Numbered from the stretch's first letter, positions 3,902 to 58,844 are shown. The stretch is DNA of 64,000 bases from Minisyncoccia bacterium (GCA_049997855.1 JBEKSG010000001.1:58059-122058); one strand, 5' to 3'. Made by a program: numbers and translations. The notes: generated from the sequence alone by a model not told the origin.

Positions 3902-3937
3902 TTGCAACTTATTTGCGTTTGTGATAAGGTAAAGGCA

Positions 3938-4369
3938 ATGAAGAAGGCCACGGTAGATTTAAAAGCGGCGCTTAAGGGAGCGGGGTTTAAAGCGACGCCT
4001 GGACGTTTACAGCTTTTGGAGCTTTTAGCTCACACCGATGAGCCTTTAAGCGTGCTCAAAATCCAAAAAAGGCTTGGTAAAAAGCTCAATGAAGTGACGC
4101 TATACCGCGCGCTCGAGGCTTTTACAGCAGCTGGTTTGGTACGCCGTGTCGACTTAGGCCACGACCACGCGCATTACGAGCTTGCACTCGGCCGTGCGCA
4201 TCACGACCATCTCGTGTGCACTAAATGCGGAGCGATAGAAGATATCGAAGGTTGTGCGCTTGTGCCGCTTCAAAAAAAGACACTCAAGCGGTCGCATTTT
4301 AAAAGCATTTACTCGCATAATTTGGAGTTTTTCGGCCTGTGCCGAGCATGCTCGAAGTACTATGAATAG
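3938..4369 (+). CDS. zur: Fur-family metalloregulator, likely zinc uptake regulator
   Basis: MKKATVDLKAALKGAGFKATPGRLQLLELL winged helix, HHDHLVCTKCG...E metal site; sits directly upstream of znuABC with ATGA overlap. Confidence 0.75.
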   Translation: MKKATVDLKAALKGAGFKATPGRLQLLELLAHTDEPLSVLKIQKRLGKKLNEVTLYRALEAFTAAGLVRRVDLGHDHAHYELALGRAHHDHLVCTKCGAIEDIEGCALVPLQKKTLKRSHFKSIYSHNLEFFGLCRACSKYYE

Positions 4370-5291
4370 AAACTGGCTTGTTGGAATCGTAGTCATTATT
4401 GTTCTCGTTACCGGCGGTTTTCTTATCTTTAGACGTGCCCCTGCGCCTAACGGCGGAGCGGCATCAAGTGGCGTTGTGCAAGTAGTTGCGGCGGAAAATT
4501 TTTGGGGCAGTATCGTATCGCAAATCGGCGGCGCGCACGTACAAGTTTTGAGTATCGTCTCAGACCCTAATGCCGACCCGCATGAGTACGAAAGCAATGC
4601 GAGCAACGCACGCGCGGTCTCTAATGCCGCTTATGTGATTGAAAACGGCGTCGGATACGACAGCTGGATGGACAAACTGTTATCCGCCGGTGGCAGCAAT
4701 CCCAACCGCAAAGTATTAAACGTGGGCCAGCTTGTCGGCAAACAGGAAGGCGACAATCCGCACCTCTGGTATAACCCTGTGTACGTCAACCAAGCCGCCG
4801 CGCAAATGGAGCAAGACTTAATCACAATTGACCCTTCCGACAAAGCGGATTTTGAGAAAAATTACCAAACATTGCAGTCCAACTTGGCTGAATACCAAAA
4901 CCGCATCGTTTCTATTAAGCAACAATATGCCGGCACCAACGTTGCCGCGACCGAAGATATTTTTGCTTATCTTGCCGCGGCAGCCGGGCTCAACCTCATC
5001 TCTCCTCCCGCATTCATTGAGGCAGTTGCCGAAGGCAATGACCCGCCTGCTCAAAGCGTCGTTGAGTTTGAAAATCAATTGAAAGCAAAAGAACCGGTAG
5101 TGCTTGTGTACAATGAACAAACAGTGACGCCTTTGACCGAGAACGTCAAAGCGCTCGCGGCGCAGGAGAATATTCCAGTCATCGGCGTTACCGAAACTAT
5201 CCAACCGCCGGATGCGACGTTCGAGGAATGGATGAACGCCGAGCTGATTGATCTGCAGAACGCTCTTAATGCAAACGTACTGGGACAATAA
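4362..5291 (+). CDS. znuA: Metal (zinc) ABC transporter substrate-binding protein, TroA/ZnuA family
   Basis: TM anchor then conserved SIVSDPNADPHEYE and TroA-like fold signature; operon context. Confidence 0.75.
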   Translation: MNRNWLVGIVVIIVLVTGGFLIFRRAPAPNGGAASSGVVQVVAAENFWGSIVSQIGGAHVQVLSIVSDPNADPHEYESNASNARAVSNAAYVIENGVGYDSWMDKLLSAGGSNPNRKVLNVGQLVGKQEGDNPHLWYNPVYVNQAAAQMEQDLITIDPSDKADFEKNYQTLQSNLAEYQNRIVSIKQQYAGTNVAATEDIFAYLAAAAGLNLISPPAFIEAVAEGNDPPAQSVVEFENQLKAKEPVVLVYNEQTVTPLTENVKALAAQENIPVIGVTETIQPPDATFEEWMNAELIDLQNALNANVLGQ

Positions 5292-5295
5292 CAAC

Positions 5296-6081
5296 ATGAA
5301 CGAACCAGTTATTACCGCAAAAAATTTAGCGGGAGGATATGCGAGTGTCCTCATATGGAAGAATGCAAGCTTCTCAATACATAAAGGTGAGTTTGTTGCG
5401 GTACTGGGGCCCAACGGCGCCGGCAAGACGACGCTGTTTCGACTTTTGCTTGGATTGGTTCAGCCTTTACAAGGCACTCTTTCCATTTTGGGTAGAAGTC
5501 CTACGCGCGGCAATCCGCGCATCGGCTACGTGCCCCAGCGTCATCACATAGACAGCGAAACAACCATCGAGGCTCTTGAGTTGGTGCGCCTCGGGGTTGA
5601 TGGCAATCATTGGGGTGTTGAAATCTCTGCCGATGCAAAAACGGAGGCTCTTGCCGCCCTTAAAACTGTTGGGGCGGAGGCATTAGCGCATCGACCGCTA
5701 GGCGCCCTCTCCGGCGGCGAGCTCCAGCGCATTTTCCTCGCTCAAGCATTAGTCGGCAAACCAGACCTGCTGTTGCTCGATGAGCCGCTTGCCAATCTCG
5801 ATATCCGCAGAGAGTCAAATTTTGTGCAGCTTATCAACAACGTCGTGCGCTCGCAAGGCGTTACGGTTTTGCTTATTGCACACAACATTAATCCGCTGTT
5901 CCCAGTGCTCGACCGCGTGATGTATGTGGCAAACGGCCATATCGCTACGGGCAAGCCGCATGAAGTGCTGACTTCCGAATCATTAAGCAAGCTGTACGAT
6001 ACACAGGTCGAAGTACTGCGAGACTCGCGCGGCAGGATAGCTATCGTCGGTACCGAAGAACCCGCGCACCACCATGAATAA
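5296..6081 (+). CDS. znuC: Metal ABC transporter ATP-binding protein
   Basis: Walker A GPNGAGKTT, signature LSGGELQR, Walker B LLLLDEP. Confidence 0.85.
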   Translation: MNEPVITAKNLAGGYASVLIWKNASFSIHKGEFVAVLGPNGAGKTTLFRLLLGLVQPLQGTLSILGRSPTRGNPRIGYVPQRHHIDSETTIEALELVRLGVDGNHWGVEISADAKTEALAALKTVGAEALAHRPLGALSGGELQRIFLAQALVGKPDLLLLDEPLANLDIRRESNFVQLINNVVRSQGVTVLLIAHNINPLFPVLDRVMYVANGHIATGKPHEVLTSESLSKLYDTQVEVLRDSRGRIAIVGTEEPAHHHE

Positions 6082-6919
6082 CGTAACGTTCAGCTTCAAC
6101 ATCATAGGCGATCTGCAAAACATGCTGCAGTACGATTTCATGTTGCATGCGTTTGAGGCGGGAACAATAGTTGCTATTGTCGCCGGTGTTGTCGGCTACT
6201 TCGTCGTATTGCGGCGCTCGTCGTTTGCGGCGCACGCACTTTCACACATCGGTTTTGCCGGAGCGGCAGGAGCCGTGCTTTTTGGCTTCAGTCCGCTTCT
6301 GGGGCTTTTGGCATTTACCACCGGAGGCGGCGTTGTTATGGCGACACTCGGTCGCAAAGCGGCAAGCCGCGATGTACAAATCGGGACAGTGTTGGCTTTT
6401 ATGCTCGGTCTCGGTGTTTTGTTTATCAGCCTGTACTCCGGCTACGCCACCGAAGCGTATTCGCTTCTTTTTGGCGAGATTTTGGGTATCAGCAGTACGG
6501 ATGTGCTGGTAACGCTTATCGCGGGGCTTATATTGCTTGCGGCAGTAGCCGTTTTGTATCGGCCACTGTTATTTACTTCGCTCGATGAAGATGTCGCTGA
6601 AGCAAAAGGGGTATCAATTTTCTGGCTTGGCGTTGCATTCATGATTTTGGTTGCAGTTGCAACCTCTATTGCGGTGCAGGTGGTGGGCGTACTGCTCATA
6701 TTTGCGCTCATGGTCACGCCCGCCGCTATAGCAGAGCGGATAGCTCGCCGCCCCGCTCAAGGCATAGCGATATCGATAGGCGTCGCCTTGCTTGCGACAT
6801 GGTTTGGGCTTTTTATTTCGTTTTATCTACCCTATCCGGTAAGCTTCTTTATCACGACTATAACATTTGCTATGTATCTCATAGTGCGTTTTTACAGAGG
6901 TTATTTTTACAGAGGTTAA
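6074..6919 (+). CDS. znuB: Metal ABC transporter permease (ABC-3 family)
   Basis: Polytopic membrane protein overlapping znuC stop. C-terminal RFYRGYFYRG is encoded by a 14-nt tandem duplication, and the stop lies inside the REP element. Confidence 0.75.
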   Translation: MNNVTFSFNIIGDLQNMLQYDFMLHAFEAGTIVAIVAGVVGYFVVLRRSSFAAHALSHIGFAGAAGAVLFGFSPLLGLLAFTTGGGVVMATLGRKAASRDVQIGTVLAFMLGLGVLFISLYSGYATEAYSLLFGEILGISSTDVLVTLIAGLILLAAVAVLYRPLLFTSLDEDVAEAKGVSIFWLGVAFMILVAVATSIAVQVVGVLLIFALMVTPAAIAERIARRPAQGIAISIGVALLATWFGLFISFYLPYPVSFFITTITFAMYLIVRFYRGYFYRG

Positions 6920-6956
6920 ACCTTCGTTACAACTTACGAAGGTTTAACCTCCGTAG
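6911..6956. repeat. REP doublet (inverted pair GAGGTTAAACCTTCGT / ACGAAGGTTTAACCTCCGT) between znuB and pilB
   Basis: Same palindromic family as REPs at 12062-12106, 12792-12829, 13402-13420; also acts as a likely terminator hairpin. Confidence 0.7.
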
Positions 6957-6997
6957 AGACTAGACAGAGAAAGGCTTTTTGGTATAACGGGCGCACT

Positions 6998-8164
6998 ATG
7001 AAACTTGCCTCTGCTCTCGAGGTCAAAACAGCTGCGCCTGTACCTGAGCATGAAGCAAGGATATCCGTCATCGCATTGGTTGACGATATCCTTGCTGAGG
7101 CACACCGACTCGGCGCCTCCGACATACACATCGATCCGCTCCCGCACACGGTGCGCATGCGCCTGCGCGTTGACGGTGTCTTGCATGACACGCGCGAGTT
7201 TCCCAAAAATATCCATCCCGAGGTGATAGCGCGCATCAAAGTGCTCTCGCGCCTCCGCACCGACGAGCATGCCGCCGGCCAGGACGGCCGCTTTCGTTTT
7301 GAAGTGCAAGGCGAGTGCGTCGACGTGCGCGTTTCTATTATGCCCACGTACCACGGCGAAAACGCGGTCTTGCGCTTGCTGTGCGCAAAAGCAAAACAAT
7401 ACTCGCTTGCCGACTTGGGTTTTACCTCGCGTAATCGGGAAAAAATAACGAATGCGATACAAAAACCCGGCGGCATGGTGCTCGCTACCGGCCCAACCGG
7501 GAGCGGCAAAACCACCACGCTCTATACGCTCTTAGATTTGCTTAACTCTAACGAGGTTTCCATCGTCACGATTGAAGACCCGATAGAATATGCCATCGAG
7601 GGTATTGAGCAAATCCAAGTTAATCCGCGCGCCGGGCTCGCATTTGCAAACGGATTGCGCTCAATGTTGCGCCAAGACCCCAACATCATCATGGTGGGCG
7701 AAATACGCGACGCCGAAACGGCGGCTATCGCGGTTAATACCGCGCTGACCGGACATCTTTTGCTCTCGACGCTCCACACCAACGACGCAGCCACGACACT
7801 CCCGCGCCTCCTCGATATGGGCATCGACGCCTATTTGGTGGCGTCGACCATCAATCTCGCTATAGGCCAGCGACTGGTGCGCAACATTTGTGCACACTGC
7901 AAACGGCGCATGCGTGACGGCTCATATAAAGGAACAGGATGCGACGAGTGCGGCGGGAGTGGTTACAAAGGGCGTGTGTGCATAAACGAGGTGCTCGTTG
8001 CGGACGAGCTCTTGCGCGAGGCCATCGTGCACAAAGCCTCTGCCGCGGAGCTCCGGAGCATTGCGATTGCAAACGGCATGGTTACCATGCAAGAAGATGG
8101 TTTTGCAAAAGCAAAAAACGGAGAAACAACACTTGAGGAAGTATTGCGCGTCGTCCGCGAATAA
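6998..8164 (+). CDS. Type IV pilus / type II secretion family assembly ATPase (PilB/GspE/ComGA-like, short form without N-terminal domains)
   Basis: Walker A GPTGSGKTT, Asp box, Walker B, His box, tetracysteine motif CAHC...CDECGGSGYKGR. Confidence 0.85.
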   Translation: MKLASALEVKTAAPVPEHEARISVIALVDDILAEAHRLGASDIHIDPLPHTVRMRLRVDGVLHDTREFPKNIHPEVIARIKVLSRLRTDEHAAGQDGRFRFEVQGECVDVRVSIMPTYHGENAVLRLLCAKAKQYSLADLGFTSRNREKITNAIQKPGGMVLATGPTGSGKTTTLYTLLDLLNSNEVSIVTIEDPIEYAIEGIEQIQVNPRAGLAFANGLRSMLRQDPNIIMVGEIRDAETAAIAVNTALTGHLLLSTLHTNDAATTLPRLLDMGIDAYLVASTINLAIGQRLVRNICAHCKRRMRDGSYKGTGCDECGGSGYKGRVCINEVLVADELLREAIVHKASAAELRSIAIANGMVTMQEDGFAKAKNGETTLEEVLRVVRE

Positions 8165-8169
8165 CCGGC

Positions 8170-9210
8170 ATGCATATGAAAGAACAAATTTTTTTATGCA
8201 AGCGCTTGGCCTATTTGATGAACGCCAATATTTCTTTGGTGGAGAGTCTCGAGATACTGCGCGCACAAGCAGGGGGGCGGAAGCCTCATGCGCTGTTTGA
8301 CCGGATGCTGATTGAAGTGCAAGAAGGGCGCGCGCTTTCGCAGGCCTTTAGCGCGTTTCCGCGTGTGTTTGGCGAATTTTGCGTTTCGATGATACAGGTG
8401 GGCGAGCGCAGCGGTACGCTCCCCGCCGCTCTCGAGCATGTGGCGGTCGAACTTGCAAAAAAGCAGCAGCTCCGTTCAAAAGTGTTGGGCGCTTTTATTT
8501 ATCCGGCAGTTATCGCCCTGGCAACACTCGGCATCACTGTCTTTTTGATGCTGTTTTTGTTTCCTAAAATAATGCCGATATTTAAAAGCCTCCACGCTGA
8601 GCTGCCGATGAGTACGCGCGTGGTGGTTGCCGCAAGTTCTTTTCTCTTGCACGATTGGCTCTTGTTATTGGCAGGCATCGCGCTTGTTGTGGCGGGAGGC
8701 GTTGTTGCGTATACGCGCAATGCGCGCGTGCGGCTCGCGTTTGAGCGCGCATTGCTCATGACGCCCGCGTTTGGCTCGATGCTCAAGAGCTACTATGTTT
8801 CAAACGCAAGCCGCATGCTCGGACTGCTTTTGCAAAGCGGTATGACGCTCCAGGATGCGGTGGTTGTCGCAGCGGAGGCGACCCGCAATCTGGTGTACAA
8901 GCGCGAGCTTGTGGCGCTTAGTGCGGTGGTAGCGCGCGGCGAGTTGTTATCAACTCATCTAGCCGCGCGCGCCGCATACTTCCCGCCGCTCTGTTCGCAC
9001 ATGGTAGCGGTGGGCGAGCGGAGCGGGACGCTCCCCGAAGCGCTCGGTTATGTGGCCGACCTTTACGGCGGCGAGGTCGACGAGCGCGCCAAAATACTCT
9101 CCGCGCTTGTCGAGCCGGTGCTCATGGTGTGCATGGGGCTCCTGGTTGGATTTATTGCTGTCTCCATCATCACTCCTATTTATGGCATCACGCAAAATCT
9201 CCATACCTAA
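8170..9210 (+). CDS. Type IV pilus inner-membrane platform protein (PilC/GspF family)
   Basis: Two GspF repeats with GERSGTL motif twice (VGERSGTLPAALEHV; VGERSGTLPEALGYV). Confidence 0.85.
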   Translation: MHMKEQIFLCKRLAYLMNANISLVESLEILRAQAGGRKPHALFDRMLIEVQEGRALSQAFSAFPRVFGEFCVSMIQVGERSGTLPAALEHVAVELAKKQQLRSKVLGAFIYPAVIALATLGITVFLMLFLFPKIMPIFKSLHAELPMSTRVVVAASSFLLHDWLLLLAGIALVVAGGVVAYTRNARVRLAFERALLMTPAFGSMLKSYYVSNASRMLGLLLQSGMTLQDAVVVAAEATRNLVYKRELVALSAVVARGELLSTHLAARAAYFPPLCSHMVAVGERSGTLPEALGYVADLYGGEVDERAKILSALVEPVLMVCMGLLVGFIAVSIITPIYGITQNLHT

Positions 9211-9667
9211 CAAACACGTGCGCGGATTTACACTCATTGAAGTGCTCGTGGTGCTGGGGATGTTCGCATTAGTTGGCGGATGTTCGCTCGTGATAGGTAT
9301 GGAAAGTTATCGGAGCGGTTCTCTCGCCGATGATCAGGCGTCGCTTGTCTCCGCGCTCCAAGAGGCAAGGAGCCAGGCCATAAGTGCCGTGTGCATCGGC
9401 AGTGCTTGCACGGCCGGGATGCCGCACGGCGTGCATATTACCCGGAAGCAGTTAGTGATTTTTCAAGGCGCTATATATAACGTCAACGACGACACCAATG
9501 ACTATATCCCTCTGCAAGACGCCGCACTTGCGACAAGCGGTTTGAACGACGTGGTATTTGCCGAATATTCGGGCGATGCAAACCCGCCCGGAGATATCGT
9601 CATGTCTGACGGAGCGGAACGTGTTGCCACAACCTCGATAGGCGCCGACGGGCAAATAGTATGGTAG
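9182..9667 (+). CDS. Prepilin-type N-terminal cleavage/methylation domain protein (minor pilin/pseudopilin)
   Basis: Leader MASRKISIPNKHVRG then FTLIEVLVVLG (class III signal, Glu+5). Start chosen inside the longer ORF 9050..9667 because that ORF overlaps pilC out of frame. Confidence 0.65.
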   Translation: MASRKISIPNKHVRGFTLIEVLVVLGMFALVGGCSLVIGMESYRSGSLADDQASLVSALQEARSQAISAVCIGSACTAGMPHGVHITRKQLVIFQGAIYNVNDDTNDYIPLQDAALATSGLNDVVFAEYSGDANPPGDIVMSDGAERVATTSIGADGQIVW

Positions 9668-11115
9668 CGCAAAAGGGTTTTTCGACGGTAGAGATGCTGG
9701 TAGCCATGACTCTCATGCTGCTCACGCTCGCGGCCGCGCTGCTCCTCTCTTTTGGAAGCCAATCATTGCTTGCGGACAGTGCCGGCAATACCGAGGCGCT
9801 TTCGCTGGCAGATGAGATACTCGGCAACGAGGAGGCGCTTGCGCGCAAAGATTTTAATTTAGTAGTCCCGACCACCGCCATCGCAACAATTGGCTCAACC
9901 GCCTACACCGAGTCGGTCGCTGTTCTGACACAAAACAACTCCTTAACTAAAAAAGTGACCGTCGCCGTGTCGTGGACGGGCGAGTACGGCCGCGCCGAGC
10001 AGGTGTCGCTCGGCACGTATGTCACCGACTTTGAAAATGCATTCTCGAGCGATACATGCGATACCGATCTTTCGGGTAACTGGATGGCTCCTATCGTGGC
10101 GAACGCAGTGCAAAACTTCGCGCAGCTCGCGGATGACGCCTCCGGCACGTACACGCTCACCGATGTAAAAGCTCGCCAAGGCAAGCTGTATGTCACCGCA
10201 AGCAACAGCTCGTCCGGTAAAGAAACTTTTTTTATTTTTACTCTTGCAAACAATATTCCGACTTTATTATCAAAGCTCGACAACGACGCCAAGCACAACA
10301 CCGGCCTCGCGGCGGTCGCGCTCTCAAACAATTACGCGTATGTCGCCGGTGCGCTTTCAAGCGACCAGCTCCAAATAATCGACATTAGCAATCCGAGCAA
10401 TCTGGCAAGCTCGAGCATTGTCGCGACCTATAAAATCCCCGCAAGCGATGTCCCCAATGCAGGCGCCGGCAACGCTATTTTTTATAAAAACGGTTATGTA
10501 TATCTCGGCCTCGTCGCGAGCGGCGGCGGCGAGTTTAACATCATCGACGTGCGCAATCCGCAAAGCCCCGAGTGGGTGGGGAGCTACAACGTCGGTAATG
10601 CGGTCAACGGCATATATATAGAAGGCTCGTACGCCTATCTCGCCAGCCCCAACGCGCGCAATCTTATCGTGCTCGACATCAGCAATCCGGCGAATCCGCT
10701 CTTGGTGGGTTCGTATACTCCTGCCACGAGCGCCAACGGCGAGCGAGTTCTCGCACTGGGCGACACCGTATATCTCGGCCGCACGTACGGCACCAACGAA
10801 CTCTATGCGTTAAACGCGACCGCGCCCGCTTCCATTGTGCCGCTTGGTTTTAAAGATTTGGGTGTGGGGAGCAATACCAGCATCAACGGCATGGTGTTGC
10901 GCTCGAACATCGCTTTTTTGCTCACCAACAAACAGCTCGTGAGTTACGACATGAGCAACCCGGCGGCTATCTCTGCATACGGTGCGCCGCTTGTGCTCCC
11001 AAACGCCACATCCGGCGCGGCGCTTGCGTGCGACGGCAACACACTCTTTGCGGCGGCTAACGACGCAAGCACTAACGGTCACGGCTACCTGTATGTGATA
11101 CAACCCGGCGTATGA
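9661..11115 (+). CDS. Pseudopilin-like protein fused to an LVIVD-repeat beta-propeller domain (candidate pilus tip adhesin)
   Basis: N-terminus KGFSTVEMLVAMTL (prepilin-like), followed by at least 4 repeats of the LxIIDISNP...VGSY type (LVIVD repeat). Confidence 0.6.
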   Translation: MVAQKGFSTVEMLVAMTLMLLTLAAALLLSFGSQSLLADSAGNTEALSLADEILGNEEALARKDFNLVVPTTAIATIGSTAYTESVAVLTQNNSLTKKVTVAVSWTGEYGRAEQVSLGTYVTDFENAFSSDTCDTDLSGNWMAPIVANAVQNFAQLADDASGTYTLTDVKARQGKLYVTASNSSSGKETFFIFTLANNIPTLLSKLDNDAKHNTGLAAVALSNNYAYVAGALSSDQLQIIDISNPSNLASSSIVATYKIPASDVPNAGAGNAIFYKNGYVYLGLVASGGGEFNIIDVRNPQSPEWVGSYNVGNAVNGIYIEGSYAYLASPNARNLIVLDISNPANPLLVGSYTPATSANGERVLALGDTVYLGRTYGTNELYALNATAPASIVPLGFKDLGVGSNTSINGMVLRSNIAFLLTNKQLVSYDMSNPAAISAYGAPLVLPNATSGAALACDGNTLFAAANDASTNGHGYLYVIQPGV

Positions 11116-11621
11116 ATAAAAAAATAACACAAGGATTTATCCGTCATGACGCCGGGTTTACGCTTATCGAAGTGATTATGTATCTCGCGCTTTTTAGCAT
11201 ACTGATGGCGGGCTCGCTCTCGGCTGCTTTTGCGCTGTGCGAGAGCAGCGGACACGAGCGCACGCGCGCGTTGTTGCTTGAGGAAGGCAATTTTATTATC
11301 GCCAAAACGGAGTGGGAACTTTCGGGCGCAGAACTTGTCACCGATCCAAGCGTCGGCAACTCCGGCGCGACGCTTTCGATTGAAAGGGTGTCGGGATACG
11401 ACAACACCGGCGCTCCTGTAACAAACGCCGTAGTGTTCGATCCGTCAACATTGGTTGGCGGCGGAGTTTCGCTTGCCTCCGTGCGTTTTTACCACGCCGC
11501 TGATTCGGGTATCGGTGCCAATCCCGAGAGCGTTGGCATAAGCTTTACGCTTGCTATGCGCACCGAGCAAGGTGCGCTGATGAGCCAAAGTTTTTTTAGC
11601 ACAACGACGCTTAAAAAATGA
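11112..11621 (+). CDS. Prepilin-type minor pilin/pseudopilin
   Basis: AGFTLIEVIMYLALFSIL N-terminal methylation motif. Confidence 0.7.
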   Translation: MNKKITQGFIRHDAGFTLIEVIMYLALFSILMAGSLSAAFALCESSGHERTRALLLEEGNFIIAKTEWELSGAELVTDPSVGNSGATLSIERVSGYDNTGAPVTNAVVFDPSTLVGGGVSLASVRFYHAADSGIGANPESVGISFTLAMRTEQGALMSQSFFSTTTLKK

Positions 11622-12058
11622 CTATGAAAAAACGGGGATTTATCGCGCTCATGTCCGTCATCATACTCTCGGCTGTCTTGCTCGGGATGGCAGCCACCGC
11701 GAGTACCGCGGGATTTTTTGCGCGGTTTAGCGCGCTCGATAAGGAGTATAAAAAAAGCGCGCTTGGGCTTGCCGACTCGTGCGCTAATGTCGCCCTTCTT
11801 ACTCTCGCGCAAAATTACGCATATACGCCCACTCTGCCTGTCGTGGTGTCGCTTGACAGCGACACATGCACCATACAATCAATAACCAACCTCGGCGCGC
11901 CCTCCGCCTCCTCGCGCACGGTGCTTATTACCGCTACAGCCAGTTATCGGGAGGCGTTTAGCGCAGTCGAGGTAAACGCCACGGCAGCAAACCCCGCTAG
12001 TAGTGCCTCTCCGGTCGCCTATCCCATAATCATTAACTCCTGGCGAGAAATCAACTAA
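11618..12058 (+). CDS. Pilus-associated small protein with N-terminal hydrophobic anchor (PilX-like minor pilin candidate)
   Basis: KRGFIALMSVIILSAVLLGMA N-terminus without Glu+5; operon position among pseudopilins. Confidence 0.4.
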   Translation: MTMKKRGFIALMSVIILSAVLLGMAATASTAGFFARFSALDKEYKKSALGLADSCANVALLTLAQNYAYTPTLPVVVSLDSDTCTIQSITNLGAPSASSRTVLITATASYREAFSAVEVNATAANPASSASPVAYPIIINSWREIN

Positions 12059-12061
12059 TAT

Positions 12062-12106
12062 ACGGAGGTTAAACCTTCGTTTAATGTACGGAGGTTAAAC
12101 CTCCGT
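12062..12106. repeat. REP doublet (ACGGAGGTTAAACCTTCGT + ACGGAGGTTAAACCTCCGT, direct) flanking the RAYT 3' end
   Basis: 19-bp perfect palindrome ACGGAGGTT-A-AACCTCCGT seen directly. Confidence 0.75.
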
Positions 12107-12761
12107 TTTCTCCGTAGGAAAGCCATTCTTTGAGACTATGTCTAAAATCTAACGCGGTTTCAAAATACTTTGGCAGCGTTGTTTTATTGAGAATGTTACC
12201 TTCTATACGTTTTGTGCCAATATAATCGGGATAACTTGAGTACGGATATTTTTTGAGATATGTTTCCGCTCTATTTTTGTCGGCAATGCCAGTCTCTTTC
12301 CATGCCGGTTCGATTAATTTTACCGGGTTTAAATGGATATAAGAAATAAGGTAAGAGAGATAGCGATCTTCACTAACGTGCGATGATTTGTATGTCCCTT
12401 GGAAGAGTGCACCTGAGTGTTTATATTTTTTATTAAAGTACATCGTGTAAGCTGTCGTCAGTTTCTGCATAAACTTGCTTATGCCCCCGTCTGCTTTTTC
12501 GTGCACAAGCAAATGAAAATGATTTGGCATTAAACAATAGACGCCAATATCTGTCAGGGTCTCTCCGCGCTCAACCATGTGGGCTTTTTCAAGCGTTTGA
12601 CCCTGCGCTCTGGTATCCGTTGAAATACTGCTATTACAGAGATAGAGAAGTGATATAAAACGATCATAATCTATTTGGGAGGTAAAAATGTCCCTTTTTT
12701 CGACGCCGCGATTGTATAAGTGGTAAAACTCTCCTGGTGCAAAGACGCTTTTTCGTGCCAT
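12081..12761 (-). CDS. REP-associated tyrosine transposase (RAYT; IS200/IS605-like Y1 HUH transposase)
   Basis: YHLYNRG, HUH motif NHFHLLVHE, C-terminal Tyr region. Gene bracketed by REP palindromes on both sides; the last residues GGLTSVH are encoded by the REP itself. Confidence 0.75.
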   Translation of the reverse strand: MARKSVFAPGEFYHLYNRGVEKRDIFTSQIDYDRFISLLYLCNSSISTDTRAQGQTLEKAHMVERGETLTDIGVYCLMPNHFHLLVHEKADGGISKFMQKLTTAYTMYFNKKYKHSGALFQGTYKSSHVSEDRYLSYLISYIHLNPVKLIEPAWKETGIADKNRAETYLKKYPYSSYPDYIGTKRIEGNILNKTTLPKYFETALDFRHSLKEWLSYGENGGLTSVH

Positions 12762-12791
12762 GGCGGCACTATACCAATCTGAAAAAAATAC

Positions 12792-12829
12792 ACAAAGGTT
12801 TAACCTTTGTACGGAGGTTAAACCTCCGT
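12792..12829. repeat. REP doublet (ACAAAGGTTTAACCTTTGT variant + ACGGAGGTTAAACCTCCGT) flanking the RAYT 5' end
   Basis: Direct sequence observation. Confidence 0.75.
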
Positions 12830-12877
12830 AACTTACGTGGGGCTTTACAAAGCTTGGAGTTTTGGTAGAGTCCCCGC

Positions 12878-13393
12878 ATGCAAACTATAAAGGACATTAT
12901 AAAGGACATTTTTTATAAAGGACAGAAAAAAACAGAAGTAGCAAAAGGTTTTACGCTTATCGAGATTTTGGTCGTTATTGGCATCATCGCCATTTTGGCG
13001 GCTATTGTGATAGTTGCCGTCAATCCTGCCCGCCAATTTGCCGAGGCGCGCAATAGTCAACGCCAAAGCAACGTTGAGTCTATCCTCAACGCGGTAGGGC
13101 AAAATATTGCCGACAATAAAGGGGTTTTTATCTGTGCGGCGGGCACACTCCCTCCAATTGCCACTACGATAGAAAGCACCGGCGGCTACGACTTGCGCGG
13201 ATGCATCGTGCCAACCTACATGGCCGAGATACCGGTTGACCCGTCAATCGGCACCATCTCAAGCGACGGCAGCACCTACAACACCGGCTATACCATCATG
13301 CAAAGCGCCTCAACCGCGCGCATCACGGTGTGCGCGCCCGGCGGCGCCGAGCCTGCAATCCAAGGGAGTGCCGCCATTTGCGTTACGCGATAA
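12878..13393 (+). CDS. Type IV major pilin (PilA-like)
   Basis: KGFTLIEILVVIGIIAILAAIVIVAVNP classical type IV pilin N-terminal helix, 24-aa basic leader, C-terminal Cys pair (CAAG...C, C...C). Confidence 0.75.
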   Translation: MQTIKDIIKDIFYKGQKKTEVAKGFTLIEILVVIGIIAILAAIVIVAVNPARQFAEARNSQRQSNVESILNAVGQNIADNKGVFICAAGTLPPIATTIESTGGYDLRGCIVPTYMAEIPVDPSIGTISSDGSTYNTGYTIMQSASTARITVCAPGGAEPAIQGSAAICVTR

Positions 13394-13401
13394 GTTCAAT
13401 T

Positions 13402-13420
13402 ACGGAGGTTTAACCTCCGT
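13402..13420. repeat. Single REP palindrome ACGGAGGTTTAACCTCCGT just after the pilin stop
   Basis: Direct sequence observation. Confidence 0.7.
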
Positions 13421-13515
13421 AAATTGATTCACCCGACCCTTCATCTGGTATTTAGTCAAGCTTGCTCACTGTTATAATAGTGCGGTATGTTTGAGCGGTA
13501 AGACAAGAGGGCGGT

Positions 13516-15357
13516 TTGACCGATTTATTAAATTATTTTAATAGTATGAATATCCAACGCACCGGCTCGACGTTTGTTTCCGGAATTCTTTTAGGTCTCG
13601 CTCTGTTTGTAGGTATTTCTTCTGCAGCGCAACCGGCTCCAGTTAAAGCACAATCTGTGCCGCTTGGCAGTCAGATTGTGTGTTTTGTTTTTACTAGTCT
13701 CAACATGTTTGGTCAGCCTATTCCGCCTCTGAGCACCAGTGATTGTCCGAGTGCGCCATCATACGGCACAGGCACACTTACAGTTATGAAAGTTGTTGTG
13801 GGAGGCACTGCAGTATCTTCTGGTTTTAGTATTCATGTTAAAAGTGGAGGTACTGATATCTCATACAGCCCGCAGCCGGGCTCAGTAACCGGGACCTCAT
13901 ATATCAGCCTTACGCCGGACAATTACACGGTGAGCGAAACAGGAGGGCCAGCCAACTACATCGGCGTCTTTAGTGGTGATTGCAACCCAAGCGGGATTGT
14001 ATCCGTGGCATCAAGTAGTATTCCTGCCGTGTGCACCATCACTAACACCTACACCGGATCGAGCGGAGGTGGGGGAGGCACGGCAAGCACGTCCGACCTC
14101 TCGATCAGTAAAACGGTCAGCACAAGTACTCCTAACGAGGGACAGACCATTACCTACACGCTTACGGTACACAACATCGGTCCCGATACGGCGCAGCATG
14201 TTTCGGTTACTGATATGCTCCCGGCAGGCCTCACTTATGTTTCCGATGACAGCGGGGGTACCTATACTCCAAGCACAGGAATCTGGCTTGTAGGTACAGT
14301 GACAACCCTGGCAAACGCTTTGCTCCATATCGTTGCCACAGTGGGCAATACCACAAATACTATTACCAACACAGCCAACATCGCTGCCGCCAGCAGCACC
14401 GACCCGGTAAGCACCAACAACACGGCACAGGTGAGCATTACGCCAGTAGCTCCCTCAAGCGGTGGCGGAGGCGGCGGCGGTGGAAGTGGCGGAAGTGGAA
14501 CCACCACCTCGGATGTAGCTATCACCAAAACAGTCGACAACAGCACGCCCAATATTGGCGGCACTGTCACCTACACAATCACTGCAAGCGATAGCGGGGT
14601 AGACGCAAGCGGCGTGGTAGTGCAGGACATTCTGCCCAGCGGGCTTACCTTTGTCTCAACCAGCACTGCCGACACGGTGGGTGTGTACAACCCGACCACG
14701 GGCAACTGGACTATAGGCGCTCTGAGCAGCACGACTCCTGCCGTGCTCCATATTATGGCTACCGTAAACAGCAGTTTGGACAACGGCACGGTTATCACCA
14801 ACACAGCTGCGGTGACCAGTGGCGATACTTCCTCGGATAGCGCAAACAACTCATCTTCGGCGCCGGTAACCGTTACTATCCCCGTTACGCCAACTAATAC
14901 CACTGGTGGTGGCGGAGGCGGTGGAGGTGGCGGGGGGGGCGGCGGTGGTGGAATTATCTCTGGTCCGCTCTCATACGGATACGGCGGAGGAGGAGGATAC
15001 CTAACACCGGGCTTGGTGCTCGGTACTTCTACCCAACAAGGAACATCGTGCGGTACATACCTCACCAGCTATTTGCGCATGGGCAGACCAAACGATGCCG
15101 GACAGGTTAAAAAACTGCAGACCTTCCTCAATACTTATGCCGGCGCAAAACTCCCGGTTACCGGCTTCTTTGGCAAGCTTACCGATGCGGCTGTGCGCAA
15201 GTTCCAGACGCAATATACCGCAGACGTGCTCACGCCGTGGATACCATACGGTCTTCCCGTTAACGAGACCACCGGCTACGTGTACAAGACAACGCAGCGC
15301 AAAATTAATCTTATTATGTGCAGCGCTCTCAACCTTCCGATGCCAAGGCTCCCTTAG
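13516..15357 (+). CDS. Large secreted cell-surface protein: DUF11-like conserved repeat domains separated by poly-Gly linkers, C-terminal peptidoglycan-binding (PG_binding_1-like) domain
   Basis: Signal peptide; two repeats LSISKTVSTSTPNEGQTITYTLTVHNIGPD.../ITKTVDNSTPNIGGTVTYTITASDSG... (DUF11 style); G8-G16 linkers; C-terminus RMGRPNDAGQVKKLQTFLN...GFFGKLTDAAVRKFQ. Confidence 0.65.
   Translation: MTDLLNYFNSMNIQRTGSTFVSGILLGLALFVGISSAAQPAPVKAQSVPLGSQIVCFVFTSLNMFGQPIPPLSTSDCPSAPSYGTGTLTVMKVVVGGTAVSSGFSIHVKSGGTDISYSPQPGSVTGTSYISLTPDNYTVSETGGPANYIGVFSGDCNPSGIVSVASSSIPAVCTITNTYTGSSGGGGGTASTSDLSISKTVSTSTPNEGQTITYTLTVHNIGPDTAQHVSVTDMLPAGLTYVSDDSGGTYTPSTGIWLVGTVTTLANALLHIVATVGNTTNTITNTANIAAASSTDPVSTNNTAQVSITPVAPSSGGGGGGGGSGGSGTTTSDVAITKTVDNSTPNIGGTVTYTITASDSGVDASGVVVQDILPSGLTFVSTSTADTVGVYNPTTGNWTIGALSSTTPAVLHIMATVNSSLDNGTVITNTAAVTSGDTSSDSANNSSSAPVTVTIPVTPTNTTGGGGGGGGGGGGGGGGIISGPLSYGYGGGGGYLTPGLVLGTSTQQGTSCGTYLTSYLRMGRPNDAGQVKKLQTFLNTYAGAKLPVTGFFGKLTDAAVRKFQTQYTADVLTPWIPYGLPVNETTGYVYKTTQRKINLIMCSALNLPMPRLP
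14932..14939 (+). repeat. G8 homopolymer inside the poly-Gly linker coding region of ORF 13516..15357
   Basis: cggggggggc seen directly; a potential slipped-strand site. Confidence 0.5.
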
Positions 15358-15610
15358 AGCCTATTTGACATCAACACAGCACAAAGTAACATAACCCGGC
15401 TGAGCTACGCTTGGCCGGAGACTCCGTGCTTCGATACGACTCTTAGATGGGTCCAAAACCTTCCGGCTTTCCGCTGGTTTCCCAGGAATTTGGACCCATC
15501 TAAACGCCGTATCTATACAGTATATGCCCATGGCAATGAATCTTTTTTGAAGAGTGCATATTGACGGGGTATCCTGCTCGTTCTCCAGTCGTAGCCGGAG
15601 ATAAAAATCA

Positions 15611-15639
15611 TTGACACTTCATAGTGAGCTTACGATAAT
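15611..15639 (+). promoter_or_regulatory. Sigma70-like promoter TTGACA-N17-GATAAT
   Basis: Consensus -35, 17-nt spacer, near-consensus -10; a second copy of the ATTGACACTTCAT element at 15802-15814. Confidence 0.5.
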
Positions 15640-15663
15640 GTATACGTTCAAGGAGCACGTACA

Positions 15664-15702
15664 ATGCTCTTACGAACAGGGAAACCGGCGACAGCCACAT
15701 GA
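15664..15702 (+). CDS. Candidate 12-aa sORF MLLRTGKPATAT with strong RBS AAGGAG (15650-15655, 8-nt spacing)
   Basis: Sits between the promoter at 15611 and the terminator at 15749. Could be a leader peptide or a small-protein gene; could equally be a non-coding RNA. Confidence 0.25.
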   Translation: MLLRTGKPATAT

Positions 15703-15748
15703 CTGTTGCTATTTTTTCTGTGTCACTATTAATTGGTTCAAAACTGAA

Positions 15749-15792
15749 GCGAAACGCTGCATAAGCGTTTCGCTGTTTTTGTTTTTTGTTTC
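15749..15792 (+). terminator. Rho-independent terminator: GCGAAACGCT-GCATA-AGCGTTTCGC followed by TGTTTTTGTTTTTTGTTT
   Basis: 10-bp perfect stem, 5-nt loop, U-rich tail. Confidence 0.7.
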
Positions 15793-15976
15793 AAAAATTG
15801 TTTATTGACACTTCATGTAGAGTTCAGAGCTTAGCCGCACAATACAACACGTGAGGCTGTGCTGTGAACTGTACAAGTACAGTCCACAAAAAGGTCGATG
15901 CCCCGACATCGCGCTCGCCGTACGGAGGCGAGATGCCGGGATTACCAATTATTTAAATTAAAAGCTTCAGAACTCT

Positions 15977-16648
15977 ATGAACAAACTTATTGCAGTGGCA
16001 ACAGGACTCGCGATGCTCGCAATGGCATCTCCGGCGTTCGCATCGGTCAACAGCAGCTCGATTACCATCTTGAACACGAACTCGGGTTACATCAGCAACA
16101 CCACTTCTGCAGTGGCACAAACCGGCGGCAATACCGCAGGCGGAAGCAATGCAGGGCATGGTGGCAATGGTGGCAGTATCGTTGCTGCCGGTAGCGGCAC
16201 TGACAACAACGGCGGTGCGACAGCCGGCAATGCCGGCAATGGAGGCAGCTCCAGCGCAGGCGGCACGGTCTCTTCGGGTGCTGCAACGTCGGACTCAGGC
16301 TCGGCAAACGCACTCAACAGCAATGTTGTTACGGTTAGCGGAGGCACCCTGAATAGTTCCTCGGCAACAGTGGAAAACAGCAATACCGGTAGTTATATTT
16401 CGGACGGCACCACTGCAGGCGCTCAAACAGGCGGCAATCATGCGCACGGTAGCAATGCTGGCAACGCTGGCAATGCCGGAAGCGTCGGTTCGAACGGCGG
16501 TAGCGGCAACAACGGCGGCGCGACGAGCGGCAATAGCGGCAGCGGCGGCAATAGCGGCACGGGCGGCTATGTTGCGACTGGCGCTTCGAGCGCAACTTCG
16601 GGCAGCATCAACGTGATGAACACGAACATCATTCGCACGCACTTCTAA
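15977..16648 (+). CDS. Secreted Gly/Asn/Ser/Thr-rich repeat protein (paralogous repeat family shared with 19151..22378 and 22424..22939)
   Basis: Signal peptide MNKLIAVATGLAMLAMASPAFA; repeats of the type TGGNTAGGS...ALNSNVVTV / SINVMNTNII. Confidence 0.55.
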   Translation: MNKLIAVATGLAMLAMASPAFASVNSSSITILNTNSGYISNTTSAVAQTGGNTAGGSNAGHGGNGGSIVAAGSGTDNNGGATAGNAGNGGSSSAGGTVSSGAATSDSGSANALNSNVVTVSGGTLNSSSATVENSNTGSYISDGTTAGAQTGGNHAHGSNAGNAGNAGSVGSNGGSGNNGGATSGNSGSGGNSGTGGYVATGASSATSGSINVMNTNIIRTHF

Positions 16649-16793
16649 ATCGCTGAAGGTTAGACGAGTTCGCTCGTGTAATATAGCGATTCTTTGAGGG
16701 TTCGGGAGCTTGGGTTAGCAAGCTCCCGCCCTCGGGAGAGTCTTTTGGGAAAGAAGGTTGTCCGGAGGGTTATTACTAACTTATTAGCAGCTA

Positions 16794-18983
16794 ATGATAA
16801 AAATTATGAAAAAACTCCTTACCAGCATCGCGACCATAGCGGCGGCTACGTTGTTTCTCGCCTCGGCGGGGCTTGCGTCAGCGTCATCTGTTGTCCCTGT
16901 GTACAACTTACAGCCGAGCTGGACAGCAGTCGGCGGTGTGGGCGTCTGGGCCGCGTATTACGCGCCTGATTCACAAGTCAGTTCTGGCATATCACCAGGA
17001 ACGACAGCAATCTACGATGGACGTGCGGCTGGCGTCATTAAGGCCGGTATTACCGCAGAACCGTCTGGGCCAAACGCAGGACACTACATGGATGAAGGTC
17101 TCCTAGGCTTTCAAGTGCCGAATGTAAGCCTCTCTTCATTCGCTTCGCAGACGCTCACATATGACGTCGATAAACAGACAGGCACAAACCCAGTGTGGGT
17201 ACGTATCAGACTGACAGATACAAATCAAACTGAATACCAGTTCATACCAACCACTAATCCCGCAGGCTGGCACACGGTTGACGCCGCTGCCGGGCAATGG
17301 CAGTTAATGGATGCCAATGGCGATGGCACTGGCCCAATGATGACACTTGCGCAGGTCGCTGCGGCCAATCCCGGGTTGGCGGTAGACCGCGTCTACTTGA
17401 CGTTGGGTATGGGCGATTCGTACAACGTAAGTCCCGGTGTCGGGACCGAAGCGTGGGTTGATACAGTCACAGTCGGCGGGACGACATATGATTTTGCACT
17501 TTCAGCGGTCACTGTCACGATAGATAAATTTATCGATGGGCACATGGCAACGGCGGCGAGCGCGAATAATTCCGCGTTCCCGATGGTTTCATCATGGACA
17601 AACGCTCCCAGTTACGGCAGTGGCAATTACGATCTCGGAACAGATGATTCATATCAAGCTGTTACGTCATCCATGAACGGAGGTGCGAGCTACACGACCA
17701 ATGAAGTAACCGCTCCATCTTCTGTCGTTGGCACAGACTGTACGACAGGAGATCCGTACGCACTCGTCGGTTATTCCTCCGGTCCGGATCTTACAACTGC
17801 AGAGGCGGCGACCCAGAGCCTGACACCTCCAAACTTCACTACTCTCACTCAAAATGAAGTGGTAATCGTCTGGAACAAGGAATGCCTCGCAGCCCCGACT
17901 CCGCTCGCTCCAGCAAATGGCACCATAACAACGACCGCAGGCTTTACCTCGGTGAGTTGGAATTCGGTAACGGATCAGGCCGGCGGCATCACGTATGTCT
18001 ACCAATCCTCTAATTCTTCGGCCACGAAACCTGATGGTTCGTTCGTGACACCGGCATACACCTCTGGATCCCTAACCGCAACGAACATCCCGACATCCGG
18101 AACTCCGGCAGGCACTTACTACTGGCACGTGCAGGCGAAAGATGCCGATGGCAACGTCAGCCCATGGAGTACGATGTGGTCGGTTACAGTCATCAACACT
18201 CCCGCAGTGATCACCAATCCTGCCACTAACGTGACTGCAACTGATGCAACACTCAACGGTGTCAATGAGGGGAACGGTGCTGGCGGACACTCGTTCTGGG
18301 TTTCGCTTGCTCCGTTCGTCACTACGAGCCCGACCATTCCGGCTGGCGTTTATTCCACGCCTGTTCTTCCGGGCGTTGCGGCGAACACGGCATTTTCTGA
18401 TCCTCTTTCGCTGGTTACCACGAACGGTATTCCAGGTAACATGCCCGCAATAACGCCAAGCACGAAGTACTACTACGCAGCATGGGCTTACATCGGTGGC
18501 ACCTGGTATCCGGGCGCAGTCTTAAACTTCACCACCCTCGCCGCACCAGTCCTCCTTCCGACTCCGGTCAATGCGTGTTCTAACCTCACGAGCCCTCCTG
18601 CAAACTACGTGCTGAAGAACGGCGTGGCGGGCAACGGCACATACGCACTTGCGCCATACACAATGTTCGTTGGCAAAGCCGGTAATTACACCGTGACCGG
18701 CTCCGGCGGGGATTACATCATCTGTCTCCCCAACGGAAACGGTACGGTCAATCTCGGCTACGGCAACGATACGGTCGTGACCGGCAACGGCAATCAGAAC
18801 ATCACGGTCGGCGCGGGCAATAGCGTCATCACGACCGGCAATGGCAACAGCAAGATTACCGCAGGCGCGGGCAATGACACCATCACCGTCGGCAATGGCA
18901 ACAATACAATCATCGCAGGCGGAGGCGCGAGCATTTGCCATGTCGGCAAAGGTCTCAATTCCATCACCGGCTGCACGCACTAG
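16794..18983 (+). CDS. Large secreted protein with FN3-like domains and C-terminal Gly/Asn-rich beta-roll-like repeats (GNGNxxITxGxGN)
   Basis: Signal peptide; FN3-like segment PAGTYYWHVQAKDADGNVSPWS; C-terminal GNDTVVTGNGNQNITVGAGNSVITTGNGNSKITAGAGNDTITVGNGNNTIIAGGGAS. Confidence 0.5.
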   Translation: MIKIMKKLLTSIATIAAATLFLASAGLASASSVVPVYNLQPSWTAVGGVGVWAAYYAPDSQVSSGISPGTTAIYDGRAAGVIKAGITAEPSGPNAGHYMDEGLLGFQVPNVSLSSFASQTLTYDVDKQTGTNPVWVRIRLTDTNQTEYQFIPTTNPAGWHTVDAAAGQWQLMDANGDGTGPMMTLAQVAAANPGLAVDRVYLTLGMGDSYNVSPGVGTEAWVDTVTVGGTTYDFALSAVTVTIDKFIDGHMATAASANNSAFPMVSSWTNAPSYGSGNYDLGTDDSYQAVTSSMNGGASYTTNEVTAPSSVVGTDCTTGDPYALVGYSSGPDLTTAEAATQSLTPPNFTTLTQNEVVIVWNKECLAAPTPLAPANGTITTTAGFTSVSWNSVTDQAGGITYVYQSSNSSATKPDGSFVTPAYTSGSLTATNIPTSGTPAGTYYWHVQAKDADGNVSPWSTMWSVTVINTPAVITNPATNVTATDATLNGVNEGNGAGGHSFWVSLAPFVTTSPTIPAGVYSTPVLPGVAANTAFSDPLSLVTTNGIPGNMPAITPSTKYYYAAWAYIGGTWYPGAVLNFTTLAAPVLLPTPVNACSNLTSPPANYVLKNGVAGNGTYALAPYTMFVGKAGNYTVTGSGGDYIICLPNGNGTVNLGYGNDTVVTGNGNQNITVGAGNSVITTGNGNSKITAGAGNDTITVGNGNNTIIAGGGASICHVGKGLNSITGCTH

Positions 18984-19150
18984 CTTTCGTCGAACATCAT
19001 ATGAAAAAGACGTAATTATCAAATAAATCGAAGGTGAGGATGACGGCGCCTCGGCGCATCGAATCCTCCCTTCTCATAAAGCCTTGTTTCTGGTATAAGA
19101 GACAGACCTCAAACACCCCAACGAGGCTTTAGAGAGGGAAACAATACATT

Positions 19151-22378: not shown

Positions 22379-22423
22379 ATCGCAGTATAATGGGTTGATA
22401 CGGAGCGTACCCACCAACAACCT

Positions 22424-22939: not shown

Positions 22940-22980
22940 TCGCTGGAGTATATAGAACATTTGACCGTAGTGTATACTAT

Positions 22981-27650: not shown

Positions 27651-27665
27651 ACTATATGCGGTATT

Positions 27666-45490: not shown

Positions 45491-45714
45491 ATGTCTTAGA
45501 TTTTATCTAGGCCACACCAAGATACCCATTGTCTACGCTTAGTGCGTGGACGCTCAAAAAGGACAACCCGATAAACAGACCGAGGATACCGAGCTGATGC
45601 AGCGGTTTTTCGGCGACTTCGAAGCACGACGCAACATCGTCGGACTTTACGACCTGCTCTACAAAATCGACCGGCGCGTCAATCCAGACCTTTACCAGCA
45701 TAAAGAACCCGACC

Positions 45715-51398: not shown

Positions 51399-51400
51399 CT

Positions 51401-58806: not shown

Positions 58807-58844
58807 TTTGTTTAAGTCGCTTTGCTCTTGTATCATGGCGGGGC

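Follow-up and report, generated by a model that had tools for sequence, protein, structure and literature searches.

The tips of type IV pili (T4P) are functionalised by modular minor pilins in monoderm bacteria, and diderms use PilC/PilY1 plugged into PilK (Denic et al. 2026, 10.64898/2026.09.18.752573). Raynaud et al. (2021) counted 1,219 modular pilins and proposed them to be tip-exposed adhesins; those of Streptococcus sanguinis bind host proteins and glycans (PMC8179133). Dataset S1 of the same study holds seven architectures that combine IPR012902 (prepilin) with IPR013211 (LVIVD repeat), amounting to 30 proteins and including an 860-aa protein from Falkowbacteria, with the motif described as being "of unknown function" (PMC8179133). 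In the Saccharibacterium Nanosynbacter lyticus TM7x, deletion of the minor pilin PilX2 lowered host binding from 10.6% to 4.6%, and the filament was still formed (PMC11623550, PMC12206443). Here, we describe the locus at positions 6998–13393 of a 64 kb stretch of DNA (the window, in which all positions are counted) taken from the 148,859-bp contig JGI 3300037843 Ga0427918_0000214 of a Minisyncoccia bacterium, a member of a class within the Minisyncoccota, i.e., the Patescibacteria or candidate phyla radiation (CPR). The gene of main interest, at 9661–11115, encodes a prepilin fused to a propeller of LVIVD repeats, referred to below as the LVIVD pilin. With moderate confidence, we interpret the whole locus as an accessory type IV filament cassette with a propeller-tipped, probably adhesive, minor pilin.

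Approximately 57 open reading frames (ORFs) of the window were run against Pfam, and curated NCBIfam models were scored against their own cut-offs. All of the pilus genes proposed by the initial annotation lie where it had placed them, on the plus strand, as seen in program translations and Pfam matches. Its description of a compact type IV filament locus from a CPR-type genome agrees with the 484-aa product of 9661–11115, which matches NCBI ABSE76_00330 from a metagenome-assembled genome (MAG) named "Minisyncoccia bacterium" at 100%. The genes and the parts of the LVIVD pilin are as follows.

6998..8164, plus strand: pilB-like ATPase, 388 aa (PF00437, E 9e-121)
8170..9210, plus strand: PilC/GspF platform protein, 346 aa (PF00482 twice, E 3e-52)
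9182..9667, plus strand: minor pilin 1, 161 aa, GspH/FimU-like (N_methyl, E 2.4e-6)
9661..11115, plus strand: minor pilin 2, the LVIVD pilin, 484 aa (LVIVD PF08309, E 3.2e-21; AlphaFold2 model; synteny)
9661..9678, plus strand: class III leader M1-G6 (MVAQKG) of the LVIVD pilin, from the family consensus
9679..10026, plus strand: pilin module of the LVIVD pilin, alpha1 helix and four-stranded sheet
10057..10059 and 11029..11031, plus strand: codons of Cys133 and Cys457 of the LVIVD pilin, invariant in the alignment
10078..11112, plus strand: seven-bladed LVIVD propeller, residues 140–484
11112..11621, plus strand: minor pilin 3, 169 aa, in the GspJ/PilW position (N_methyl, E 1.4e-7)
11624..12058, plus strand: minor pilin 4, 144 aa, in the GspK/PilX position (MKKRG/FIALMS)
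12878..13393, plus strand: major-pilin-like protein, 171 aa (N_methyl, E 3e-6)

The LVIVD pilin and its conservation

The LVIVD pilin begins with MVAQKG/FSTVEMLVAMTLMLL (here and elsewhere, the slash marks the predicted cleavage site), cleavage being predicted before F7 with the glutamate of position +5 at E11. The signal comprises a basic leader, Gly at −1, a hydrophobic residue at +1, Glu at +5, and about 20 hydrophobic residues, which is the composition of a class III prepilin signal. The PF08309 match of the protein is above the Pfam gathering threshold and its N_methyl match is weak (E 0.013). Chance or an ordinary Sec signal as the source of this weak match was ruled out by the motif conserved in the family alignment, where the consensus is xxGFSTLExLIAM, conservation of E11 reaches at least 90%, and nearly all sequences have Gly at −1. 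The G-x4-E pattern was located within the first 70 residues in 96 of 120 homologues, most of the other 24 corresponding to start-truncated gene calls, and the class III motif was likewise present in 63 of 71 further cluster representatives of up to 1100 aa.

The AlphaFold2 (AF2) model, built from 102 sequences, reached a predicted local distance difference test score of 92.3 (pLDDT) and a predicted template modelling score of 0.88. It consists of an alpha1 helix (residues 9–63), a four-stranded sheet (71–122), a linker of 17 residues (123–139), and 27–28 strands at 140–483 that form seven four-stranded blades, with strand 140–146 closing blade 7. The long alpha1 helix on an antiparallel sheet is a pilin fold, and the pilin module (7–122) together with the separately folding propeller (140–484) makes the protein a modular pilin. 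The initial annotation had proposed a pilin–propeller fusion on the basis of the sequence and had named a normal signal peptide as the finding that would count against it; both the cleavage motif conserved on alignment and the structure prediction it had asked for support the fusion. All four of the repeat motifs that it listed (IIDISNP, IIDVRNP, IVLDISNP, and VSYDMSNP) were found, and its count of at least four repeats rises to seven blades in the model, each of which contains the LVIVD-type third strand.

The pilin head is structurally similar to GspI-family subunits and has a complete GspI-class fold. GspI/EpsI/XcpV proteins have about 120 aa and no extra module, and the LVIVD pilin goes unrecognised by the corresponding sequence model, TIGR01707 (gspI) being absent from its NCBIfam matches. 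The best pilin matches in that collection were ComGE (E 0.001) and GspH (E 0.054), both restricted to the N-terminus, and the "choice-of-anchor B" model TIGR04312 matched with E 5e-7. Cys133, situated in the linker, and Cys457 are invariant across the 102 sequences, and a disulfide between them would lock the closure of the propeller. Separately, a DsbA-like gene is located 13 kb upstream.

A homologue search with the LVIVD pilin returned 283 matches, nearly all of 470–540 aa and full length, the few named ones belonging to Patescibacteria. An exhaustive search of 1.84 billion cluster representatives at 50% identity (E ≤ 1e-30) gave 2,306 matches; about 70 of the best 150 were single-stretch full-length relatives, and the rest were giant surface proteins with multiple LVIVD repeats. 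We identified 48 loci in GTDB species representatives, all of them Patescibacteria MAGs, with LVIVD pilin identities of 30–87%. The host lineages were Paceibacterota, Kaiser-, Adler-, Lloyd-, Zambryski-, and Doudnabacteria, in addition to some genomes with generic labels. According to tblastn with the window proteins, the order PilB, PilC, minor pilin 1, LVIVD pilin, minor pilin 3, minor pilin 4, and, after 0.1–3 kb, major pilin was kept in essentially every locus with enough flank, and the LVIVD gene was placed between minor pilin genes in 47 of the 48 loci. The description of the fusion as an unusual architecture was therefore an overstatement, given that fusion and operon are kept in 48 genomes and that 30 prepilin–LVIVD proteins are present in Dataset S1.

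In the window, pilB and the genes that follow it up to minor pilin 4 leave gaps of at most 5 nt or overlap by 4–29 nt, and on this account they look like a single translationally coupled operon; the end of pilC overlaps minor pilin 1 by 29 nt, and the LVIVD pilin gene overlaps that of minor pilin 3 by 4 nt. A scan of 6700–13700 for sigma-70 promoters and terminators gave 9 promoter-like sites against 6.1 and 12 terminator-like sites against 10, neither of which is above the shuffled expectation.

Some family members depart from this pattern. The sole rearranged locus was that of a Kaiserbacteria MAG (L023, 5118–11425), where the LVIVD pilin gene lies behind that of the major pilin and not between minor pilins 1 and 3. 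Variants of 650–1020 aa were observed in L043, L048, L053, and L054, and among the proteins P0018, P0044–P0047, P0093, P0097, P0101, P0111, P0114, P0159, P0165, and P0167. Some of these have an insert of about 170–200 aa at the junction of pilin module and propeller, while others have extra C-terminal domains (Big_3_5 in P0111).

When compared to described systems, the closest parallels are modular pilins and propeller-bearing tips. The PilB-vWA and PilC-lectin proteins of S. sanguinis are built like the LVIVD pilin, with a class III N-terminal pilin module, a short linker, and a bulky C-terminal module; they are likewise encoded in a monoderm-type pilus operon and proposed to be displayed at the tip for adhesion. 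TM7x PilX2 is, according to its published description, also a CPR minor pilin with a C-terminal seven-bladed propeller, and it belongs to T4P-2 of TM7x, a second pilus system without a retraction ATPase. In contrast to the LVIVD repeats and the canonical, conserved G/F..E5 signal reported here, PilX2 has RCC1 repeats, for which the LVIVD pilin gave no Pfam match, and a non-canonical signal. Moreover, T4P-2 has PilM2/N2/O2, whereas our cassette is devoid of PilM/N/O. PilY1/PilC of diderm type IVa pili resembles the LVIVD pilin, as its role is proposed here, in placing a propeller on an H-I-J-K complex of four minor pilins at the tip, and its gene likewise stands among the minor pilin genes. By the features that define PilY1/PilC tip adhesins (a propeller of the IPR008707/PF05567 type in a protein that is not a pilin, with a plug strand at its C-terminus), the LVIVD pilin does not qualify as one.

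Filament machinery and putative priming complex

The ATPase aligns to positions 101–485 of 486 in the GspE model and 180–563 of 564 in the PilB model. Because the alignment covers the C-terminal three quarters of these models, the protein lacks an N1/MshEN N-terminal domain. Its translation contains the Walker A motif GPTGSGKTT, the Asp box EDPIE, the Walker B motif GEIRD, the His box, and a CxxC...CxxC tetracysteine motif. The PilC protein has two T2SSF domains and a short N-terminus, aligning to positions 63–400 of 401 in the GspF model. Regarding the curated cut-offs, the ATPase scored 477 of the required 630 bits for GspE, 448.5 of 675.7 for PilB, and 245.7 of 300 for ComGA, and the platform protein 271 of 424 for GspF and 133.7 of 240 for ComGB. 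ComGC reached 23.9 of 75 bits, and ComGD, ComGE, and ComGF were far under their cut-offs.

A six-frame motif scan identified a single T2SSE Walker A in the window. Pfam gave no match to an A24 prepilin peptidase, to PilT, to PilM/N/O, or to a secretin among the approximately 57 window ORFs scanned, none of these was present within 10 kb past each window end, and GspC/L/M and the secretin GspD were not detected in the window either. The A24 motif GxGD[..]K was absent from the six-frame scan of the window and from 54 loci, by a strict regular expression that a divergent enzyme could escape; the same applied to the flanks of the 48 related loci, which extend up to 10 kb on each side and are often shorter. 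CPR bacteria are described as lacking PilQ and an outer membrane, and PilD is widespread in their genomes (PMC6744442). With respect to the initial annotation, a PilB-like ATPase without the N-terminal domain, PilC, four prepilin-type proteins, and a major pilin were all recovered (model coverage, Pfam, and motifs), as was the lack of a secretin, PilMNO, and prepilin peptidase in the window. Its term "Com-like" holds for the gene content and fails for the models, every ComG model being below its cut-off.

Membership in three known systems was considered and rejected. For ComG, every equivalog cut-off was missed and the GspE/PilB and GspF/PilC models scored higher; for the type II secretion system (T2SS), the window has no secretin or GspC/L/M, and GspE and GspF remained under their equivalog cut-offs; for type IVa pili (T4aP), there is one T2SSE gene in the window, no PilM/N/O, and the N-terminus of PilB is missing. 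The cassette further differs from the T2SS in having no outer membrane to serve. Firmicutes ComG shares the minimal composition, in that an N1-less ATPase and a single platform protein go with a major pilin and four minor ones, while PilT, PilMNO, and a secretin are all lacking, but its major pilin gene is the third one, whereas in our cassette it is the last; we know of no ComG minor pilin with a propeller. The system is thus ComG-like in composition but, by the curated cut-offs, a member of neither ComG nor the T2SS nor T4aP.

This composition bears on the alternative that the locus encodes a competence-type, ComG-like pseudopilus for DNA uptake, short and non-retractile or PilT-independent, which captures DNA or opens the wall, the propeller serving as a DNA- or wall-binding head. 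The gene content equals that of ComGA–GG (ATPase, platform, one major and four minor pilins, no PilT/PilMNO), weak ComGD/GE/GF matches exist, and pili and competence systems are both common in CPR genomes (PMC6744442). However, besides the missed ComG cut-offs and the higher scores of GspE/PilB and GspF, the window ORFs that were scanned and the flanks listed for two gene-annotated relatives contained no Competence/ComEC or ComEA domain, and the YncE match was no better than dozens of matches to WD40 proteins. We therefore consider a DNA-uptake function unlikely.

One related locus shows the cassette next to a classical system. In a Parcubacteria MAG (L042, 12570–19799), a second, type IVa-like set was located 1–7 kb downstream of the cassette, composed of PilM, PilO, a 577-aa PilB with an MshEN domain, a response regulator, PilT, and PilC2. 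Since this classical set adjoins the cassette, the genome has two filament systems, like TM7x. The short ATPase pairs with the absence of PilM/N/O, and the cassette would work independently of these proteins.

The remaining pilins would fit a GspH-I-J-K set. The start of minor pilin 1 is situated 44 codons into the ORF 9050–9667, according to the gene call on the contig, and its leader is MASRKISIPNKHVRG/FTLIE. A GspH domain spans residues 54–154, i.e., the whole head (E 0.013), and 12 of 30 relatives had a GspH Pfam match, the best with E 6e-5. Minor pilin 3 has the leader ...HDAG/FTLIE, and N_methyl, its one match, was found in 33 of 33 family members. Minor pilin 4 gave no Pfam or PDB sequence match; about 40 readable relatives keep its N-terminal pattern G[FY][IV]AL[MI]S and lack Glu5, and it has two invariant cysteines. 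The lack of Glu5 marks the filament-capping subunit of the GspK/PilX type in T2SS and T4P work. Profiles of the families of minor pilins 4, 3, and 1 matched PDB sequences in the N-terminal helix or not at all, a comparison in which the solved minor pilins are N-terminally truncated. The putative H subunit is thus indicated by GspH matches, I by structure, J by position, and K by the absent Glu5, and the order, sizes, and features are consistent with an H-I-J-K priming and tip complex whose I subunit bears the propeller; formation of the complex is a prediction. The sequence of the major-pilin-like protein starts with ...AKG/FTLIEILVVIGIIAILAAIVIVAVNPARQF; it is the best conserved pilin of the set (46–90% identity across loci), and 12878–13393 is regarded as the probable major pilin gene.

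The ORF of minor pilin 4, of 144 aa here, reaches 650–1630 aa in several relatives, namely L009 (from 12204), L013 (from 7073), L017 (from 12126), L021 (from 9508), L053 (from 12542), and others. In these, the subunit that caps the filament may be another modular pilin of large size.

Possible function of the propeller

We propose that the locus encodes an accessory type IV filament as a self-contained cassette, conserved in Paceibacteria-type Patescibacteria, in which the N1-less PilB-type ATPase and PilC would polymerise the presumed major pilin (12878–13393). The prepilins would be processed by a PilD encoded elsewhere. Assembly would begin on a priming complex of the four minor pilins, similar to GspH-I-J-K or FimU-PilV-W-X; this complex would finally occupy the tip of the filament, topped by the Glu5-less minor pilin 4. 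Minor pilin 2, with its GspI-class module, Cys-bearing 17-residue linker, and seven-bladed LVIVD propeller, would display the propeller at the pilus tip as a ligand-binding head, most likely for the surfaces of host or partner cells. The gene fusion could in this way serve the purpose for which diderm type IVa pili use the non-covalently attached PilY1/PilC. As many as 79% of the residues inserted in propeller loops fall in the B-C and D-A loops, that is, on one face, as counted by strand and loop bookkeeping on the DSSP string, a figure that depends on our blade assignment. This pattern is consistent with a conserved scaffold whose binding face is structurally plastic. The tip adhesin was ranked first because of this pattern and because the published parallels are adhesins.

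Several points weigh against this interpretation as a whole. The mean column entropy of the propeller is 1.78 bits, compared with 1.5–2.0 for the pilin module, so that it is no more variable, and the propeller evolves approximately like PilC (30–43% versus 33–52% identity among distant relatives). Such conservation is more readily reconciled with a conserved ligand or a structural role than with an adhesin specific to one host, and we know of no established biochemical function for LVIVD propellers. Within the priming complex, the putative J subunit was assigned solely by gene order and the putative K subunit by gene order plus the missing Glu5, and in the profile comparison with PDB sequences minor pilin 3 was matched in the N-terminal helix alone, while minor pilin 4 had no match. 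Finally, PilD was not found in the window, 10 kb beyond each end, or in the flanks of related loci, and processing by it is assumed.

The conservation of the propeller, which equals that of the machinery, leads to another possibility, namely that the propeller is mainly structural, stabilising the tip complex and licensing assembly like the PilC/PilY1 plug on PilK, with ligand binding being secondary or left to other subunits such as the giant minor pilin 4. The conserved part of PilY1 is indeed its propeller, and its essential role is the stabilisation of PilK (10.64898/2026.09.18.752573); the additional 650–1600 aa in minor pilin 4 of several relatives could then be the real adhesin. On the other hand, TM7x still extrudes filaments after deletion of its propeller pilin (PMC11623550, PMC12206443). 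In addition, the propeller of the LVIVD pilin sits on an I-type rather than a K-type pilin, and the insertions on a single propeller face suggest a diversifying surface, making a mainly structural role improbable in our judgement.

It is very improbable that the LVIVD protein is PilD-processed but stays outside the filament as a membrane-anchored surface protein, comparable to the archaeal bindosome: the LVIVD/"choice-of-anchor B" module (TIGR04312) does occur with many anchors, as expected of a family that accepts interchangeable ones, and the distant matches are dominated by giant LVIVD surface proteins, but the gene is fixed among the minor pilin genes in nearly all loci and translationally coupled to them, and the carrier is a complete pilin fold, more than a signal peptide.

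Palindromes, genomic neighbourhood, and significance

Beyond the pilus genes, a 19-nt palindrome resembling repetitive extragenic palindromes (REP), ACGGAGGTTWAACCTCCGT, occurs in 6 copies in the 64 kb against 0.03 expected, all of them at the boundaries of the pilus locus, where a Y1 transposase-like gene is also found.

6909..6954: two REP-like palindrome copies (ACRGAGGTTWAACCTYCGT), a short way upstream of pilB
12062..12106: a pair of REP-like palindromes, immediately behind minor pilin 4 and in overlap with the 3' end of the Y1 gene
12081..12761, minus strand: IS200/REP-associated tyrosine (Y1) transposase-like gene, 226 aa (PF01797, E 7.8e-11)
12793..12830: palindrome pair in the gap from the Y1 gene to that of the major pilin, one copy variant and one perfect
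13402..13420: REP-like palindrome, 9 nt past the stop codon of the major pilin gene

The Y1 gene, which the initial annotation does not mention, is situated between the genes of minor pilin 4 and the major pilin and scored 44.9 bits against the NF047646 cut-off of 80. Homologues with 32–57% identity were located beside the cassette in the distant relatives L010 (4901–5609), L031 (7003–7077 and 12419–12439), L041 (1722–1943), and L045 (6363–6935), the coordinates covering Y1 and palindrome sites. The 57%-identical homologue of L010 (Adlerbacteria) occupies the identical slot in the identical orientation. None of the other loci fetched contained the exact core GGAGGTTWAACCTCC. Palindromes built on an AGGTnnnACCT core, and specific to the respective genome, were found between the minor pilin 4 and major pilin genes in L010 and L031, as well as upstream of pilB in L031 and around the Y1 gene in L041. 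To judge from these sequences, this looks like an arrangement of the REP and REP-associated tyrosine transposase (RAYT) type that recurrently brackets the major pilin gene, and the Y1 gene could be either a conserved resident or a site-specific insertion. The GC content falls to 0.455 at 12–14 kb.

Combining these elements, one may envisage a distinct Paceibacteria-type filament lineage without PilM/N/O and N1, in which the GspI–propeller fusion captured the PilY1 function of tip stabilisation and target recognition, the variable face would set the partner specificity of the episymbiont, and species-specific REP-like hairpins and the recurrent Y1 gene, both flanking the gene of the major pilin, would modulate or switch the expression of the pilin. 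As a whole, we regard this scenario as speculative and rather doubtful.

In the surroundings of the cassette, six proteins predicted to be secreted or surface-located are encoded in a row directly downstream (13516–24366). Those at 13516–15357 and 19151–22378 have DUF11/isopeptide-type repeats and a peptidoglycan-binding domain, and the others include Gly/Ser/Asn-rich proteins and a protein of 729 aa whose end is RTX-like. Near the cassette, DUF11 homologues were also located in L010, L021, L024, L026, L039, L053, and L054. Directly upstream of pilB, genes encoding a Fur-type regulator and a ZnuA/ZnuC/ZnuB-type metal ABC transporter are found (3902–6919), with no evident link to the pilus. Further away, a DNA methylase (N6_N4_Mtase), a ResIII/helicase protein, and a large serine recombinase follow in a row at 47221–52927, possibly a type III-like restriction–modification module on an integrated element, and the AT skew is strongly positive (0.16–0.25) at 46–52 kb. 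ORFs of 839, 375, and 373 aa at 26007–28526 and 44363–46836 had no Pfam match at E ≤ 0.01. The contig also encodes two MreB paralogues (window 58822–59859; L005 14678–18441), the second of which is followed by MreC and a PBP2-type transpeptidase, i.e., elongation machinery in an ultrasmall bacterium.

Full-text literature searches found no description of the GspI-class carrier module of LVIVD pilins, of a conserved H-I(LVIVD)-J-K cassette whose ATPase is N1-less and which lacks PilMNO, or of the wide Paceibacteria-type distribution of the cassette. The cassette extends the established modular-pilin concept; it is no new category, and nothing is overturned by it. Patescibacteria constitute a large share of bacterial diversity, and, to our knowledge, all cultivated members live attached to other microbes, which makes pili prime candidates for finding and holding hosts, and functional pilus data come from a single Saccharibacterium. 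For the large uncultured Paceibacteria side, the locus defines a compact, strongly conserved second pilus cassette, in which the LVIVD pilin is a clear candidate for a ligand-binding tip, a concrete protein to express and test, and a marker for metagenomes. It would represent a natural "covalent" counterpart to the tip complex of PilY1 and minor pilins, and it offers a first plausible role for an LVIVD propeller.

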